Of a DNA stretch of 59,551 nt, positions 4,777-11,517 are shown piece after piece. The DNA is from a virus. Lineage: Duplodnaviria; Caudoviricetes. The first letter of the stretch is position 1; every line of letters starts with the position of its first letter. Below the pieces are notes generated by a model. That model searched no databases. It had not been told where the DNA came from and saw only the letters and a program-made list of their open reading frames with translations. The stretch spans positions 1-59,551 of IMG/VR virus record IMGVR_UViG_3300010234_000012; one strand, 5' to 3'. Both the position numbers and the translations under genes were made by a program.

Positions 4777-5511
4777 GTGAGTGTTTTAGCTAGATTAAAG
4801 AGTTCAGTTGCCAAGCGGGGTGTGTTCGGTGTGGTTGCCGGAACGAGATTGAGTGGCAAGTCAACAGTTGCAGGTACATTACCAGGCAACACATTGTTAT
4901 TGCAGGCAAAGCTAATTGAGACTGGCAGCAGGTCAGCACAGAAGCTTGCCGATAAGCTAGGGAATTCCCTGGACATCGCGGAGTTCTCTACCCTTAAGGA
5001 TCTCTATGATGTGATCGAGGAACTGGGTGAGGATACCCATTACAAGAACATATACATTGACGGTATGTCTGCCATCACGGAGCTGAAGCATGATGAGCCA
5101 GAGATGAGAAAGATGATGAAGAAGAATGTATGGGATGCCTACCGTGAGATCGGAACCTCTGCTGCCACTATCCTATATGCAGCGAAGGGTTTGTCTGAGG
5201 AAACAGGCAAGAACGTATTCTTCACCTTAGCCCTGAAGGAGAAGTATGACAGCATGGGCAACCTAGTTAACCTAGACCCTGACATCAAAGGCAACATGAC
5301 ACTCGGCTCAATCAAGAAGATCTGCCCTGTTGTGGTGTGCCTTCGAGCTACCCTGGACGAGGACGGCAACACTGTGCGAGAGGTATTAACCGCAAGTGAA
5401 GGACCATTCTCGGCCCGAGTGGATGAGTTGATTGATGACGAGAACCCCGGAGTTTTGCCTGCTGACTTAGGCAAAGTCCTAAACCTACTCAACGGAGGAT
5501 CGAATGAGTAA
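4777..5511 (+). CDS. P-loop NTPase (AAA_24 / Sak4-like recombination ATPase)
   Basis: Walker A GTRLSGKST, Walker B IYIDG; GGAGG before GTG 4777; next to SSB-like gene and nuclease. Confidence 0.75.
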   Translation: MSVLARLKSSVAKRGVFGVVAGTRLSGKSTVAGTLPGNTLLLQAKLIETGSRSAQKLADKLGNSLDIAEFSTLKDLYDVIEELGEDTHYKNIYIDGMSAITELKHDEPEMRKMMKKNVWDAYREIGTSAATILYAAKGLSEETGKNVFFTLALKEKYDSMGNLVNLDPDIKGNMTLGSIKKICPVVVCLRATLDEDGNTVREVLTASEGPFSARVDELIDDENPGVLPADLGKVLNLLNGGSNE

Positions 5512-6193
5512 TGCATGGAACACATTGGCAGGTAAACTAGCTGCCGACAGCGACAACTTTAACACCCCAGTCAGTGGCGGCGCATACATGGGGATTGGCG
5601 AACACAGTGACGTATTCATCGAAGGCGTAGAGCGTGACGTGTCGCAGAAAGGCAACCCCTACATCAAGGTGATCTGGTCGGACGACGAGGGACGTAACCA
5701 CAACGACTTCGTGATGCTGTATGGCAAGACCAAAGAAGGTGGCCAAGGATTTCACTTCGCTATTCGCCGGCTGTTCAGCGGATTGATTGCAGATGAGACC
5801 TTACGCTTAGCCTACTTCAACAAGCTAGTCAACGACCCAAGCGGTGAAGGCTTCGACTCCCTCCGAGGATTGCGAGCATCACTTAAGATCGGCCAAGGTC
5901 GCAGTGGCTACACCGTCAAGGAAACACCGACCGGTGGCTACGTGATCTATGATGTCGAGGACAAAGAGAATGTGGTTGAGGATGTGTATGAGACCTACAC
6001 CGATGCAGTGGATGCTGCCAAGGAGATGGGCCTGAAGCGAGCCTATCCAGAAGTGAAGGCCATCAAGTTACCAAGCGAGGAGTATGTAAATGCAAACGAG
6101 GCCGCCGCTAGTTCTTTTGTCGAGGCAGGTAGTGCCGGTGCCAAAGGTGGAAACGTATCCAAACCCCACAATCTTACCCGTAGTTCTATCTAA
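5504..6193 (+). CDS. Putative single-stranded DNA-binding protein (DUF669-like)
   Basis: G.H.DVFIE.VE...SQKGNPYIKV.W pattern; position after AAA ATPase. Confidence 0.55.
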   Translation: MSNAWNTLAGKLAADSDNFNTPVSGGAYMGIGEHSDVFIEGVERDVSQKGNPYIKVIWSDDEGRNHNDFVMLYGKTKEGGQGFHFAIRRLFSGLIADETLRLAYFNKLVNDPSGEGFDSLRGLRASLKIGQGRSGYTVKETPTGGYVIYDVEDKENVVEDVYETYTDAVDAAKEMGLKRAYPEVKAIKLPSEEYVNANEAAASSFVEAGSAGAKGGNVSKPHNLTRSSI

Positions 6194-7298
6194 GCTAGGA
6201 CCAGGGCCGGTTGCCTTCGACCTGGAGACATCTGGCCTGGACCCATTAGCACCCGACGCAAGGATTCGCTCGATCGGTTTGGCCACGGAACGGCTGAGCT
6301 GTGCTATTGATCTTGAGGGGGCTGGGGATAATACCCTAGCTGTCCTCGGGCAATTCCTATCTAGCCGTCCAACGATCGCTCACAACTGGACGTTCGACAG
6401 TGGCTGGATTAAGCAGGTCACTGGGTATATGCCCAAGTATGGGATGTGTACCTATGCCGCCTACAAGCTGCTGGCTAACGAGGGTAACCTTGGACAGGTA
6501 TGGAACCTTAAGGATGCCATGACCAGGCTGCTAGGATGGCCCAACAGTAACGAGAAAGAGCTGTACGACTGGCTCAAGGCAAACAAGCTAAGTAAGGGTG
6601 ACATGCACCTCGCACCATGGGATGTCCTGGGTGAGTACTGTGCCCTGGATACTGCCGCAACATGGCAGCTACATAGGTACTTCGACAAGGAGCTGGACAA
6701 CTGGCCTCACCTCCGCTCATATATCAACGGCGAGGTGGCCACGATCTCACAGCTTGTAGTCGAGCAACAACTCCGAGGCATGAGCATCGACATAGAATAC
6801 CTGGAGGGATATGGTAGGGAGTTGGACGAGGAATGTCTCGCACTGAAGGCTAAGTTCTTTGAGCTGCCCGGTGTACTAGAGGCAGTCGATGCATTCAATT
6901 GTAGGGTGGCTGAGAAGATAGCCTCCAAGGAACCGAAGAGATTCAAGAAGGATAGCACGGAGACAGTAGCCTACATGAAGTGGGTGATCAAGTGTGCAGA
7001 GGCAGAGCATGTAAATCATTTCAACATAGATTCAACCCAGCAGTTGCAGTGGTTGTTCTTCGAGAGGCTTGGCATCACACCAAAACGATACACACCGAAG
7101 GGAGCACCAGCAGTGGATAAGAAATCTTTGCCCTACCTGGGAGCGCCGGGTAGGCTACTGAGTAAATACCGTAAGCTGAGGGATGAGAGGAAGTTCGTGA
7201 CAGCAACACTTAACGTACAGATGGACGGGGTACTGCATCCGATGCTGAAGGTTCCCGCAACAATAACCGGCAGGCTTGGAGGGGGTAGCAATGACTAA
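6090..7298 (+). CDS. polA: Family A DNA polymerase, N-terminal part (3'-5' exonuclease, thumb, start of palm)
   Basis: ExoI FDLETSG, ExoII AHNWTFD, ExoIII YCALD; FNIDSTQQL; ends TITGRLGGGSND*. Confidence 0.92.
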   Translation: MQTRPPLVLLSRQVVPVPKVETYPNPTILPVVLSKLGPGPVAFDLETSGLDPLAPDARIRSIGLATERLSCAIDLEGAGDNTLAVLGQFLSSRPTIAHNWTFDSGWIKQVTGYMPKYGMCTYAAYKLLANEGNLGQVWNLKDAMTRLLGWPNSNEKELYDWLKANKLSKGDMHLAPWDVLGEYCALDTAATWQLHRYFDKELDNWPHLRSYINGEVATISQLVVEQQLRGMSIDIEYLEGYGRELDEECLALKAKFFELPGVLEAVDAFNCRVAEKIASKEPKRFKKDSTETVAYMKWVIKCAEAEHVNHFNIDSTQQLQWLFFERLGITPKRYTPKGAPAVDKKSLPYLGAPGRLLSKYRKLRDERKFVTATLNVQMDGVLHPMLKVPATITGRLGGGSND

Positions 7299-7584
7299 CC
7301 TACTTCCCTGCGCTTGCGGGAGCGAGCCTAAACTTTTTAACCGTAACAGCCTAAACGTACACTATAGATGCCCTGAATGTAAACTAACACCTTGCACTTA
7401 TCACATCAAGGAAGAGTTTGCTAGGCAAGCCTGGAACCACGCCATGGAGCCAGTTGAGGATATGCGTAAGGTTGTTGAGGCGGCGGTAGAATATCGCAGG
7501 CGGTATCTTAAGTTTGGCGCTAAAGCCTCAATGATTGATTTAGTTAAGGCCCTCGCAGCTATGGAGGCAAGCAATGCTGAGTGA
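7291..7584 (+). CDS. Lar-like (restriction alleviation) zinc-finger protein
   Basis: LLPCACG...CPEC...A.QAWN pattern. Confidence 0.6.
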   Translation: MTNLLPCACGSEPKLFNRNSLNVHYRCPECKLTPCTYHIKEEFARQAWNHAMEPVEDMRKVVEAAVEYRRRYLKFGAKASMIDLVKALAAMEASNAE

Positions 7585-7921
7585 CGAGGAACTAGACAAA
7601 ATTCAGTCGAATTATGATGAGGGCTACTACGATAAACTTGCTATGTGGGCTGAGATTAGCCGCAAAGACACAACCAAGCTACTCATGGAAGTCAGGCGCC
7701 TACGCTCAAGGCTAGAGGCGGCGGATCGGTTGGCTGATGCATCGATGGAAATAGCATCCTGCCCGTATATATTAGAAGAGGCATCAATACCAAAGGCAGG
7801 TATTCAAGCAAACCCAGACCAAGTTGTCGGGATGATAAGTTGTGCCATGGTCAGACTAGATAAATTAGAAAAGTCAATCGAAGCATACCACAAGGCGAAG
7901 GAGGGGAGTGATGGAAATTGA
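7574..7921 (+). CDS. Mosaic hypothetical protein, paralogue of 55860-56240
   Basis: Shared MLSD / SRL.AADRLA.AS / EAY.KAKEGSD blocks. Confidence 0.8.
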   Translation: MLSDEELDKIQSNYDEGYYDKLAMWAEISRKDTTKLLMEVRRLRSRLEAADRLADASMEIASCPYILEEASIPKAGIQANPDQVVGMISCAMVRLDKLEKSIEAYHKAKEGSDGN

Positions 7922-8222
7922 AGACGTCTATGACAACTTGAGCGACAAGCCACAAGACTTTTTTGAACGTGTTGAAAAGGCGGGAGGATGGCCTATTGGG
8001 TATAAGTATGCATCTTTTTATCACTCCGTTAGTAACAATGGGCGCGATGTAATGTTCGGTAACGAAAGGTTACGAGAGCCTTATTGGACCACACGCTACG
8101 ATGCCGATGATTACTACTGGTGGAAAATTTCAGGAGCTAAAAAAGCTGTTATTGCCAGCAAGATAAGACGGCAGTTTGCAGATGAGATGCGTCAAAGGAG
8201 TGATGAGGGGAGTGATGAGTAA
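7911..8222 (+). CDS. Hypothetical protein
   Basis: Strong RBS; flanked by 13-nt direct repeat. Confidence 0.75.
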   Translation: MEIEDVYDNLSDKPQDFFERVEKAGGWPIGYKYASFYHSVSNNGRDVMFGNERLREPYWTTRYDADDYYWWKISGAKKAVIASKIRRQFADEMRQRSDEGSDE

Positions 8223-8352
8223 ATTCCTCCATCGACTTTCCTTGTGGGTAGAGATTGTTTCTGCCTTTGACGAGAAGGGTATACCTCTGTCATATATAGA
8301 CAGCCATTTCATATGGAACAAAACTAAGGATCTATGCGGGGATTGGCAGTAG
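8215..8352 (+). CDS. Hypothetical 45-aa protein
   Basis: GAGGGG RBS, ATG overlapping upstream stop. Confidence 0.55.
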   Translation: MSKFLHRLSLWVEIVSAFDEKGIPLSYIDSHFIWNKTKDLCGDWQ

Positions 8353-8411
8353 TGGGTAACTGCGATGGGTTTGATTCCAGCGTCCCTCAAACTTTTGGAT
8401 AGGAGCAGTAC

Positions 8412-8570
8412 ATGGACGAGCACAGAGCAGAGGCAATAGCCTACATAGCCGTCTTTACTTTCTTAACCATTGCAGTGCTGGCTTGGTCTAGGTGTGCAGG
8501 TAGGTCCATATGCTTAGATCATTGCAAGGATAACGTGGAATGTATCGCTGCTTGTATTGGCGATGAGTAA
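8412..8570 (+). CDS. Small membrane protein with Cys-rich C-terminus (52 aa)
   Basis: AGGAG RBS; TM segment AIAYIAVFTFLTIAVLAW. Confidence 0.65.
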   Translation: MDEHRAEAIAYIAVFTFLTIAVLAWSRCAGRSICLDHCKDNVECIAACIGDE

Positions 8571-8575
8571 CTTAC

Positions 8576-8701
8576 GACCGTAGCGCAGGCTGGGTAGCGT
8601 CGAGCAATCGGCTGCGTAGCCCTGGTAAGCGCACAGGACGCACTACAGGTTGTGTGGTCGGTTGCATGACGATGCAAGCCCCGTCGCTTGGGGCAACGGT
8701 C
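8576..8701 (+). ncRNA. Candidate multibranch structured RNA
   Basis: Intergenic; closing stem GACCGT/ACGGTC and four internal hairpins including a GCAA tetraloop. Confidence 0.55.
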
Positions 8702-8718
8702 ACCCTAATAGGAGATGA

Positions 8719-9015
8719 ATGATGGGCAAGATAAAAGACCAGTATGAGAAATGGCAGCGTGAGATGTGGGAGGATGAGATTCACTTTGAGGCTGCCCCCA
8801 TCTACACTATCAACCTCCCTGAGGGAGTCTACATCAGCACACCCGAAGAGGCCGAAGAAGAGATTCGCAAACTCGATGAGGCGATACTCCGTAACATCGA
8901 ACAGATGGGTGAGACCCGTTGGAACCTTCCCCTTACTTGTGAGCATGAGTGGGTAAGCGCTGGGTTCAGCACTAGTACATATTTCTGCAAACACTGTGAC
9001 GTGGATAAGCCATGA
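8719..9015 (+). CDS. Hypothetical protein with C-terminal CxH...CxxC motif
   Basis: AGGAG RBS; CEHEW...CKHC. Confidence 0.75.
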   Translation: MMGKIKDQYEKWQREMWEDEIHFEAAPIYTINLPEGVYISTPEEAEEEIRKLDEAILRNIEQMGETRWNLPLTCEHEWVSAGFSTSTYFCKHCDVDKP

Positions 9016-9839
9016 GTAAGATCAACATACAAAACTTACCATCCTCCCCTAGGTTCATGCGAGCCTTTGTTGCGAGACCGAACCACAAGATTGTATACAC
9101 AGACTTCGACGCCTTGGAGTTTAAGGTGGCAGCACACCTCACCCAGGACAAGAGCCTGATGTCCCTGTACGGACCGAATGCTAAACCTAATGATGCTCAC
9201 CTGTTCAATGCAGCTAACATGAGATTGTTTGCCGACGAGATCCAGAAGTACTATAACCCCTTGGACCCCACACCTGAGGGCATCAGGCTGGCCAAGGAGA
9301 ACTGTCACACCGTTCGACAGATCGTCAAGATGGCGGGATATGCAATGAGCTACGGGGCACAACCGCCCAAGATATACGACGAGCTACGGACAGCAGGATA
9401 CGATGTCACACTCCGGGACGCTCACCAGATATTTGATGACTACTGGAACACCTACTCTGGTATCGTGCGGTTCACTCAGAAGCTCCAGCAGATGTGGCAA
9501 GACAATGGCAGGTGGGTTTACAACGGTAGGGGGAGACCGCTGTGTGTACCAGGGAAGTATAAAAAAGACCTGTATAATCGGGTAGTTCAGGCTACCGGCC
9601 ATGACTGCTTGATGAGGTATGTGGAGATTCTCGACCAAAGGTTAACGGGTTTAGAGGCGTACCCATGGGACGTGGACAAGCATGATGCAACCGCCTGGGA
9701 GGTTCATGAGGACCAAGCCGAAGAGGTTAAGGAGATGATGCAGGGGGTGTACCCGGCACTCAACAGCGAACTACAGTGGACAGTTGACATCACAGGTGAC
9801 GTTAAGATAGCCGATAACCTAGGGGAGCTAGTAGGATGA
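9012..9839 (+). CDS. polA: Family A DNA polymerase, C-terminal catalytic part
   Basis: Starts MSKINIQNLP; motif A DFDALE, motif B RQIVKMAGYAMSYG (Tyr at the 762-equivalent position), motif C KHDA. Confidence 0.92.
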   Translation: MSKINIQNLPSSPRFMRAFVARPNHKIVYTDFDALEFKVAAHLTQDKSLMSLYGPNAKPNDAHLFNAANMRLFADEIQKYYNPLDPTPEGIRLAKENCHTVRQIVKMAGYAMSYGAQPPKIYDELRTAGYDVTLRDAHQIFDDYWNTYSGIVRFTQKLQQMWQDNGRWVYNGRGRPLCVPGKYKKDLYNRVVQATGHDCLMRYVEILDQRLTGLEAYPWDVDKHDATAWEVHEDQAEEVKEMMQGVYPALNSELQWTVDITGDVKIADNLGELVG

Positions 9840-9860
9840 TAGCGAAGTTTAACCAGGAGA

Positions 9861-10646
9861 TTGACATTGATTCTATATGAGATCCGAGCCACCAAACGCC
9901 GTGTATCCTACCCGATACGCCTCGTCACCAAGGACGCCCTCGCCGATGCACAGGGTTTCCGCAGTGTGTACGGCTACGATACCGAGGTTGCCGACATGGT
10001 ATTAAGCACCAATAGCACCCGAGGTTTGATGGGTATGTCCATGTTCTCCGACGAGCTACTGATCGACATTGACGATGATTGGTCAGGTGCCGAAGCCTTT
10101 GCCGAAGAGATAGGCAACTACTCCTACAGTATGTATGACACCGGGGGCAGATCCATTCACTTCCACATCCCCATCGACCCCATGTACGGTGCCCATGTGC
10201 CAGCCGTCCAGAAACAGTGGGCTCAGGAGTACTGCCCCTGTGCCGACATGTCTATCTACCGCACCTCTGGTGTGTACCGATTGCCTGGAACCTACCACGA
10301 AAAGAACCCCGGCAAGTTCAAGGAGTTGATTGAGGTCAACGAAGGCGAGACCCTGACAGTATCATTGCCGCAGGGTATTGACTCGCTCAACAACATCGTC
10401 GCTGGTATCGCCGAGGACATCGACGAGGAAACAGAAAAGGATAAACTGAACCACCTATTGCTTATGCCTGCTAGGGAAGGTGGGCGTAACAACCACTTAT
10501 ATCGTATTGTAGCTAAATGTGCCACGCTTGGTTTTGAGTTTGGCCGAACCATGGAGATCGCATCCGTATGGAATCAGATGATGTCAAGCCCACCACAGCC
10601 GGAGACAGCAGTGGAAGCGACAGTGAAATCAGCCTACCTGAGATAA
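9861..10646 (+). CDS. AEP-type primase-polymerase with PriCT-like C-terminal domain
   Basis: IDID, TGGRSIHFHI, RLPGT; EGGRNN...WN...PP....V.SAY. Confidence 0.8.
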   Translation: MTLILYEIRATKRRVSYPIRLVTKDALADAQGFRSVYGYDTEVADMVLSTNSTRGLMGMSMFSDELLIDIDDDWSGAEAFAEEIGNYSYSMYDTGGRSIHFHIPIDPMYGAHVPAVQKQWAQEYCPCADMSIYRTSGVYRLPGTYHEKNPGKFKELIEVNEGETLTVSLPQGIDSLNNIVAGIAEDIDEETEKDKLNHLLLMPAREGGRNNHLYRIVAKCATLGFEFGRTMEIASVWNQMMSSPPQPETAVEATVKSAYLR

Positions 10647-11134
10647 GGTGGCCGAAAGGAAAAGACAACCTAGAGCTGCGCCGACGCATAGGTAAGGACC
10701 TACCCAAGATCTTGAGGGGTAGGATGCTGGCCGTGGACCCAGGTAGTAAGACCGCAGGGTGGGCGCTGTTCGAGAAGGGTGTGCTCGTGGACAGCGGGCA
10801 GTTTAAAGCGAGTAGCAGCATGCCTATCCATCGAAGGTTGCAGGTACTCTACGACAAGTTCACGGAACACCAAGCCCCAGACGTGATCTCGATCGAAAGG
10901 CTGAGAGGTTCTATGAGCCACGCCTATCTCTTCTGGGCAGTAGGCATTGCAGTGACTGCGGTGAGAGCGCCCATTATGCTTGAGGTTCCTATCAACGTGT
11001 GGAAGGCTACGGTGCCTAAAGACTATGTAAAGACAGACCAGGCAGATGCAGAGTCTATCGGTGAAGCCGTGGTGATGATCGCTAGAGAGATTGAGTTAGA
11101 AAAGAAAAACGAAAAGAAACATAAGAGGTACTAA
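10568..11134 (+). CDS. RuvC-like Holliday junction resolvase
   Basis: LAVDPGS..GWA, ISIE, DQADA..I. Confidence 0.8.
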   Translation: MESDDVKPTTAGDSSGSDSEISLPEIRWPKGKDNLELRRRIGKDLPKILRGRMLAVDPGSKTAGWALFEKGVLVDSGQFKASSSMPIHRRLQVLYDKFTEHQAPDVISIERLRGSMSHAYLFWAVGIAVTAVRAPIMLEVPINVWKATVPKDYVKTDQADAESIGEAVVMIAREIELEKKNEKKHKRY

Positions 11135-11517
11135 TGAGTTACAAAGATCCATTCCATATACCAGCGAAAAGGCTAGTCGTTGAACACAACGGCGAAGAGG
11201 TGATGTTACTAAACAAACAATTACTAGACCAGCAGAACGCTTGGGAGAATCTTGAATTAATTAAGAAGCTGCACAATATCAGGTTGAACGTAGAAGATCT
11301 ACTAGGTGATACTTCTGGAGCTAATAAAAAGCTACTGCTGAATACATGGACAACAGTTCAGTTTGCTTTACAACGTGCTTGGGGATTTCCCGAGGATAAA
11401 AACTACCACCGCTTCTGGGACATACCCTCATGTGATTGCCCTGAGATGGACAATGACGATCGCTATCCTACAGGCTACTATGTAGTTAGTGGTAAGTGTG
11501 ACTTACATGGGAGCTAG
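11134..11517 (+). CDS. Hypothetical phage protein (Cys/His C-terminus)
   Basis: Coupled ORF; LQ.AWGF..D..YH.FW..P.C.CP.MDN. Confidence 0.75.
   Translation: MSYKDPFHIPAKRLVVEHNGEEVMLLNKQLLDQQNAWENLELIKKLHNIRLNVEDLLGDTSGANKKLLLNTWTTVQFALQRAWGFPEDKNYHRFWDIPSCDCPEMDNDDRYPTGYYVVSGKCDLHGS

Follow-up and report, generated by a model that had tools for sequence, protein, structure and literature searches.

In the tailed-phage record IMGVR_UViG_3300010234_000012, the family A DNA polymerase (PolA) is encoded as two open reading frames (ORFs) on the plus strand, polA_N at 6090–7298 and polA_C at 9012–9839, and the 1713 nt between them (7299–9011) are filled by six small ORFs. All 59,551 bp of this record were analysed and are referred to below as the window; it is a complete virus record with direct terminal repeats and 100% estimated completeness. 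The question raised by this locus is whether the polymerase gene is broken, whether its parts are joined again at the level of DNA, RNA or protein, or whether the polymerase is made in two pieces. Our analysis makes it very likely that this is a two-subunit, 'genes-in-pieces' PolA whose junction is a slot for accessory genes.

The first half, polA_N (402 aa), carries the 3′-5′ exonuclease domain, the thumb, the N-terminal polymerase region and the TGRL strand. Its C-terminal end reads ...TITGRLGGGSND*, the last residues being GGGSND ahead of a TAA stop at 7296–7298. The second half, polA_C (275 aa), starts with ATG at 9012 and the residues MSKINIQNLP, and holds motif A (D31, E36), motif B (K106, Y114) and motif C (H224, D225). 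Pfam analysis found DNA_pol_A_exo1 (PF01612) at residues 39–203 of polA_N (E 4.1e-15), followed by profile positions 23–121 of DNA_pol_A (PF00476; E 5.1e-8), whose 32.7 bits are under the cut-off of 34.3, as expected because polA_N is a fragment of the domain. polA_C matches positions 124–380 of the same profile (E 1.1e-17). Since 23–121 and 124–380 abut, no polymerase sequence is missing at the break. A hypothetical join of 7286 to 9015 would leave seven residues between TGR and NxQ, a spacing that is found in 13 of the 42 fused relatives described below; the loop has six residues in 27 of them, and 12 and 23 in one each. Its length varies among the fused forms, which indicates that the loop tolerates length changes. 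The original prediction had placed the split inside TGRL...NxQN and had claimed that no coding sequence was lost there; the ORFs and the Pfam matches confirm the former, and the abutting profile positions and the loop length bear out the latter. Neither half contains a frameshift or an internal stop, and the two are the only PolA-like stretches in the genome.

Residues 393–397 of polA_N (TGRLG) align to positions 343–347 of the Klenow chain, and polA_C aligns to positions 352–573, with the N of NIQNLP at position 352. On the Klenow side the alignment stops at 347 (TGRLS) and restarts at 352 (NLQNIP). If the Klenow chain starts at residue 324 of Pol I, as we assume, the cut lies between about S670 and N675, within TGRL...NLQNIP, which we take to be 'motif 2'. 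By the same assumed numbering, the equivalent of R668 is on polA_N, and those of D705 and D882 are on polA_C. In a 25-row alignment of the N half, A2, D44, E46, N99, Y183, D187 and R395 are invariant and D103 is nearly so; D44, E46, D103, Y183 and D187 are presumably the Exo I–III residues. PF01612 and the acidic residues together mark a 3′-5′ exonuclease domain in polA_N. The 35-row alignment of the C half showed D31/E36, K106/Y114 and H224/D225 to be invariant and aligned to the Klenow motifs, and motifs A, B and C of a polymerase domain are all present over the two halves. D222, two residues upstream of the motif C D of polA_C, is also invariant in these 35 rows.

Related loci were collected by scans of IMG/VR and JGI metagenomes, which gave 79 loci; in 71 of them the C part is covered by 200 aa or more. 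The locus rows were not de-duplicated, and 65 of the 72 tree rows are distinct. Among the 71 loci, the polymerase is fused in 42, split at the TGRL/NxQ loop in 14, interrupted by an intein in one (L043), and undecidable in the remaining 14. The fused relatives have one continuous PolA, e.g. TGRLAGAGGVNIQQMPK, and the gene that is contiguous in these 42 is cut in the 14 loci and the window with no residues lost. A search of 5.8 billion proteins found 11 homologues of the C half, with lengths of 277–324 aa and identities of 31–51%, and all of them start at the same site. By hmmsearch, 19 stand-alone C halves were found in the best 150 of 1.84 billion cluster representatives, that is, in about 13% of the nearest 150 protein clusters. 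These start 2–10 residues ahead of (N/S)xQ, 18 with M and one with L; the same 150 also included one ambiguous case and one short protein which is a fragment of the fused form. No close DNA relatives were found among cultured phages, and the cultured-phage protein matches inspected (4 of 44 records: DrManhattan, AD45-P1, 11895-B1 and phiMiGM15) all lie within single-ORF polymerases.

The 14 split loci provide the survey of homologues that had been proposed for the same break with different cargo, and their cargo is unrelated between lineages. L009 has no insert but a TAATG stop/start overlap, and its neighbouring genes on both sides are the same as those of the window. L006 has no insert either, with TAG followed directly by ATG. 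The gap is 231 nt in L017, about 300 nt in L048, 1055 nt in L021, 1057 nt in L022, 1357 nt in L033, 1672 nt in L063 and over 2 kb in L074, while in six further loci the contig holds the C half and upstream non-PolA sequence only. As judged by eye, a Shine-Dalgarno site precedes the C half in most relatives. In the slot of L063 (949–2000), two ORFs without an assigned function come after genes for a dUTPase (Pfam E 4e-12) and a ClpP-like protein (E 4e-6), and the cargo of L022 has an HNH_3 match (E 3.8e-5) under the Pfam cut-off. An all-versus-all tblastx of 15 cargo pieces showed that genes are common to near relatives only (L021/L022, L033/L073 and L062/L063), and no relative's cargo shared genes with that of the window. 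The pair L021 and L022, whose polA halves are about 93–94% identical, shares two middle ORFs at 84% nucleotide identity. Directly after polA_N, L021 alone has a 463-bp gene (953–1415; 155-aa ORF without a family match), and directly before polA_C, L022 alone has a 458-bp HNH-like gene (6783–7240; 186-aa ORF). This shows that turnover takes place exactly at both edges of the slot.

Comparison of L021 with L022 gave a ratio of nonsynonymous to synonymous substitution rates (dN/dS) of 0.052 over 292 codons of the N half and of 0.065 over 278 codons of the C half. By these ratios both halves are under purifying selection in this related split lineage, which stands in for the window, itself without a close relative. 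A quick maximum-likelihood tree of the C part placed 14 split rows, the window included, on one side of a branch with a Shimodaira-Hasegawa-like approximate likelihood ratio test (SH-aLRT) support of 90. L006 was nested among the fused forms as sister to L025 (support 96), and at least two changes between the fused and split states are required on this tree. Forcing all split rows into one clade costs 49 log-likelihood units (approximately unbiased (AU) test, p-AU 0.035). This points to two separate origins of the split without proving them, as the group for the AU test was chosen with the tree already in view.

The two halves, each given as an alignment, were also modelled as a complex. The interaction prediction score from aligned errors (ipSAE) was 0.84 as the median of three runs, and the best of three controls scored 0.00; the ipSAE mark used is reached by 58 of 80 solved complexes and by 2 of 110 mismatched pairs. 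Contacts agreed by at least 80% between runs, and the partner's predicted local distance difference test (pLDDT) value was at least 89. A heterodimer of polA_N and polA_C is predicted by the model.

The six ORFs in the gap, all on the plus strand, are likely to start with the ATG codons at 7291, 7574, 7911, 8215, 8412 and 8719; for three of them the automatic ORF list had given earlier TTG or GTG starts. Cargo gene 1 (7291–7584, 97 aa, coding score +0.164) encodes a Lar-like zinc-ribbon protein, matching PHROG 599 (Lar-like restriction alleviation; E 1.5e-5) and, at a sub-cut-off level, Pfam Lar_restr_allev (E 1.4e-3). Its end is overlapped by cargo gene 2 (7574–7921, 115 aa), which is followed by cargo gene 3 (7911–8222, 103 aa from the ATG at 7911). 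Cargo gene 4 (8215–8352, 45 aa from the ATG at 8215), the shortest and least certain of the six, overlaps the stop of gene 3 at ATGAGTAA. Cargo gene 5 (8412–8570, 52 aa) has a hydrophobic N-terminal stretch and a Cys-rich tail, and cargo gene 6 (8719–9015, 98 aa) has Cys pairs near the C-terminus. Cargo genes 2–6 had no match in Pfam, PHROGs or NCBIfam. Searches of these three databases recognised no nuclease or recombinase family in the six ORFs and, as the original prediction had stated, no homing endonuclease or intein motif in the gap. Relatives of cargo genes 2, 3 and 6 were not found in IMG/VR by a pattern scan that reaches close relatives only, and an Atlas look-up of cargo gene 6 gave nothing above lead level.

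All six cargo ORFs score as coding, with log-odds of +0.10 to +0.26 per codon in their own frame and negative values in the other two frames; the codon table was trained on the large genes of the phage, both polA halves being within the training set. Each of the six has a GGAG/GAGG site 6–12 nt upstream, and start/stop overlaps occur at four of the five cargo-cargo junctions as well as at both junctions with the polA halves. The description of the gap as six small coupled ORFs thus held. At the first junction, the ATG of cargo gene 1 lies 5 nt ahead of the polA_N stop, and its ribosome-binding site GGAGGGGG is formed by the polymerase Gly codons GGAGGGGGT. At the last, the TGA stop of cargo gene 6 overlaps the start of polA_C (ATGA). 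In its middle the array has a GC content of only 0.43, compared with about 0.52 on either side of it. Consensus matches for promoters and terminators in 5400–10800 were fewer than in shuffled sequences, and none was found at the junctions.

The original prediction also noted that the two ends of the array are similar, and this is correct in so far as the 12-mers match at 10 of 12 positions, which 28 of 2000 shuffles reach. Both ends are, however, instances of ATGASTAA, an ordinary start/stop overlap in which the start codon lies 5 nt ahead of the TAA of the upstream gene. The window has 13 copies of this motif where 4.3 would be expected, and none of 100 shuffles reached 13. The sites include 2167, 5504, 7291, 8215, 8563, 9012 and 48951, several of which are gene junctions. 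ATGASTAA looks like the preferred form of translational coupling in this phage. A reading of the 10/12 repeat as a target-site duplication was rejected, as the motif belongs to gene junctions over the whole genome.

Of two structured RNA candidates that had been proposed in the gap, the one between cargo genes 5 and 6 (8571–8718, plus strand) stood, with a minimum free energy of −63.2 kcal/mol (z −2.77; 2 of 200 shuffles as good), whereas that at 8350–8415 did not (z +1.14). The former is a non-coding, GC-rich spacer (GC 0.60 versus 0.486 for the window) with a long predicted hairpin which needs G-U pairs and is therefore specific to the plus-strand RNA; no inverted repeat at the DNA level was found in it. 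There is no second copy of the spacer in the window or the related loci and no tRNA within it, and Rfam gave only a sub-threshold match. The spacer may serve as a processing site of the RNase III type or give rise to a small RNA. A hairpin over the first junction, also part of the original prediction, exists but is within the range of shuffled sequences (z −1.79; 13 of 200).

Several other explanations would make the array something to be removed or disregarded, and even taken together we give these four only a slim chance. Splicing of the array from the mRNA as an intron (group I, group II or an unknown ribozyme), giving one fused PolA, would agree with the seamless joined frame and its normal loop spacing, with the structured spacer inside the array, and with the introns known in phage polymerase genes, a possibility that the authors of phage MEP401 raise for their own phage (PMC10580990). 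It is nevertheless very unlikely. Rfam found no intron family in 6000–10000 even at E up to 10, which also upholds the earlier statement that no group I core is present, and none at the gathering score in 10 related loci. The array is filled by six coupled, coding-like ORFs, a stop codon closes the N half and a separate start codon opens the C half, which in most relatives is preceded by a ribosome-binding site (by eye), and relatives with the same break carry no insert or unrelated inserts without a common RNA core. That the segment follows a U and ends in G had been offered as a clue to rejoining, but this has an ordinary explanation. We give almost no credence to protein trans-splicing, in which the halves would be rejoined by a split intein. 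Metagenomes are described as containing 'fractured genes', in which split inteins flank a gap that carries endonuclease genes (PMC2677866), and inteins occur in this PolA family (L043; L068–70 and L074 at motif A; an intein-like start in P0004). In the window, however, only SND follows GGG in the N half and only M-S-K precedes INIQN in the C half; the relatives have tails of 1–7 residues and heads of 2–10, and such short ends leave no room for intein halves. Pfam found no intein family, and the array has stops in all frames.

A polA decaying as a pseudogene, broken by inserted DNA in a phage that relies on another polymerase, would fit the frequent annotation of split genes as pseudogenes, the score of the N half just under the Pfam cut-off, and polA_C having no ribosome-binding site of its own. 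This is as improbable as an intron: both halves are intact, the catalytic residues are invariant, dN/dS is 0.05–0.07 in the split lineage, the genome has no other PolA, and the split is kept across a deep clade whose members are only 31–50% identical. Still less probable is an assembly artefact, or a DNA element excised before the polymerase is expressed. The 10/12 direct repeat flanking the array speaks for it, but this repeat is the genome-wide ATGASTAA overlap. The same layout is found in many independent assemblies, the genome record is closed and bears terminal repeats, and Pfam, PHROGs and NCBIfam revealed no recombinase among the cargo genes. The original prediction had left two readings side by side. 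Rejoining at the RNA or DNA level is not required and finds no support, given the separate stop and start, the two relatives with zero insert, the lack of an intron match and the lack of room for split-intein halves. The comparative data support the other reading, a PolA that is naturally heterodimeric and whose break has turned into a hotspot for cassettes: a clade shares the break, with 0 to over 2 kb of unrelated cargo in it, and both halves are under purifying selection.

The two-subunit reading starts from what is observed, namely the gene structure, its conservation, the selection on both halves and the turnover of the cargo. According to it, polA_N and polA_C would be translated separately from one operon and would assemble non-covalently into one polymerase fold. 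The exonuclease for proofreading would come from polA_N, together with the thumb and the palm's first strand as far as TGRL; polA_C would add the remainder of motif 2 (NxQNLP), the fingers and the catalytic carboxylates. The cut in the length-variable TGRL–NxQ loop is inherited, being shared by a whole clade of related ~60-kb phages. As the cut is an intergenic junction within an essential replication operon, it tolerates insertions and has turned into a slot for the gain, loss and exchange of small accessory genes; in this phage the slot is occupied by six genes with predicted translational coupling, of which cargo gene 1 is Lar-like. Translation of polA_C probably takes place by termination-reinitiation once ribosomes have finished cargo gene 6. 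A mobile element with the conserved motif as its target, e.g. a homing endonuclease gene, probably introduced the cut in the first place. This origin is a conjecture, because the window cargo has no such gene and the HNH match of L022 is below the cut-off; it is drawn from that match, from the intein of L043 8–9 residues away and from the other insertions in this gene family. We hold it rather doubtful that the junction acts further as an integron-like exchange platform, in which the polymerase halves would serve as homology arms and visiting homing endonucleases would cut co-infecting relatives, so that cassettes would be swapped by co-conversion and their early expression guaranteed by read-through to polA_C. 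Anti-restriction genes such as the Lar-like gene 1 would be an example of the cassette content.

Some points weigh against the two-subunit reading or parts of it. Motif C (window 9681–9686, H224-D225) is HDA, versus HDE in Klenow; the HDA(T) form is common to most fused and split relatives alike and, judged from the alignments, is a trait of the family that has nothing to do with the split. Among the eight genes, polA_C alone lacks a recognisable Shine-Dalgarno site, and its translation would depend on coupling, which we infer to run through six genes. The separate polypeptides and their polymerase activity are themselves deduced from sequence and the model. The complex score may stem from single-chain PolA structures that the model has memorised; since these have been solved, the passing score may only mirror likeness to them. 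The nearest homologues, P0002 and P0004 (49–51% identity), are known from protein alone. No homing endonuclease gene was found in the window's cargo by Pfam, PHROGs or NCBIfam, and the two origins of the split were deduced from a quick tree and a post hoc AU test (p 0.035).

Other insertions were observed in PolA genes of this family. L006 has a second interruption of about 945 bp (10570–11515), in the C half at VQ|STGHD, which contains a 222-aa ORF without a family match and leaves the L006 PolA in three pieces. P0004 diverges at the same VQ|STGHD site into an intein-like CLAADTLV... sequence. The intein-like insert of L043 (9030–10000), about 315 aa long, follows NLQQ, starts with CFAPDTEALT and is 8–9 residues from the break site. 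L068, L069, L070 and L074 have an in-frame insert of about 398 aa at motif A, ending ...TGN|C, upstream of the C-half match, and the insert of L065 (445–1383) is at the same place. Judged from these sequences, the PolA gene of this family is a hotspot for several kinds of mobile elements. Directly after polA_C in the window, a 261-aa gene (9861–10646) has a weak primase-polymerase-like match (PHROG 695, E 9.5e-7). Its homologues adjoin polA_C in 14 loci. Nine of these are split there, in five the C half begins outside the contig, and no fused locus is among them. The window also encodes a portal protein, a large terminase, a major head protein, a helicase, an exonuclease, a Sak4-like annealing protein and a RuvC-like resolvase.

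In this locus a family A polymerase is cut naturally in its palm, with the TGR arginine on one side and the NxQ/motif A residues on the other, and the cut has been tested by evolution. A split point that would have arisen at least twice may be useful for engineering split polymerases and for studying how two chains can share one active site. The slot is also a predictable site of fast-changing accessory genes in uncultured phages, and a cheap place to look for anti-defence genes. PolA often serves as a marker gene for viruses. Its stand-alone C halves will be mis-called as truncated genes or pseudogenes, and they will distort PolA phylogenies, unless the halves are joined.

The OM43 phages MEP401 and MEP402 encode a split PolA as ORF13/ORF14/ORF15, and the split is common to most related metagenomic genomes (PMC10580990; OP830906). 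As in the window, this is a tailed-phage PolA cut within the polymerase domain, with the exonuclease and N-terminal part first and small ORF(s) without known function between. The Pfam profile of MEP401 runs from 48 to 132 and then from 154 to 380, which places the cut after NxQNxP, just before motif A, whereas that of the window is at 121/124, between TGRL and NxQ, near the MEP401 site and not at it. MEP401 has one 77-aa ORF in the gap, versus six ORFs in 1.7 kb here, and the phage lineages differ (43 kb and Zobellviridae-like, versus about 60 kb). The PolA of Pseudomonas phage LUZ24 (Bruynoghevirus; NC_010325) is annotated in three pieces, gp25, gp34 and gp36 ('exonuclease subunit', 'part II' and a short third), with eight genes between the first two and an endonuclease VII gene between the last two (NC_010325 annotation; cf. 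PMC3890496). Unlike the window, LUZ24 is cut at the exonuclease/polymerase border and near the C-terminus and not in motif 2, according to the annotation rather than to residue-level mapping. The premise of the original prediction, that phage PolA genes are usually split at the exonuclease/polymerase border, is therefore incomplete, as MEP401/402 and LUZ24 are split within the polymerase domain. Two-ORF family A polymerases are also found in T7-like cyanophages of clade B (S-TIP37-like), in which the exonuclease domain is a separate ORF (PMC12695635), and in the pol-gamma-like ORF86/ORF85 of cyanophage Mic1, which is cut within motif A by a 298-bp spacer that its authors call an intron (PMC7156551).

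A functional precedent for non-covalent reassembly is given by the T4-related Aeromonas phages 25 and 44RR, whose family B polymerase is split into gp43A and gp43B; the halves co-purify and are active (PMC2988022, citing Petrov, Ratnayaka and Karam 2010). The gap between them contains an untranslated spacer (44RR) or a seg-like homing endonuclease gene (PMC2988022). This is likewise a replicative phage polymerase encoded by two cistrons with variable DNA between, but the polymerase family, the fold and the cut site differ from those of the window, and the gp43 cargo is smaller. Aeromonas phage Aeh1 (nrdA-a/mobE/nrdA-b) is a 'genes-in-pieces' precedent in another essential enzyme, ribonucleotide reductase, in which a homing endonuclease gene, inserted into a conserved and functionally critical region, has split the protein into two polypeptides that together still make an active enzyme (Friedrich et al. 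2007 as cited in PMC2988022 and PMC5418858), versus no recognisable endonuclease gene in the window cargo. The 44RR spacer shows that such a gene in the gap is not universal for this class (PMC2988022). The full text of open-access papers and preprints gave no description of a PolA cut at the TGRL/NxQ loop, and one may exist. Split phage polymerases as such were already known, and what is new here is the cut site together with the unusually long cargo of six genes.

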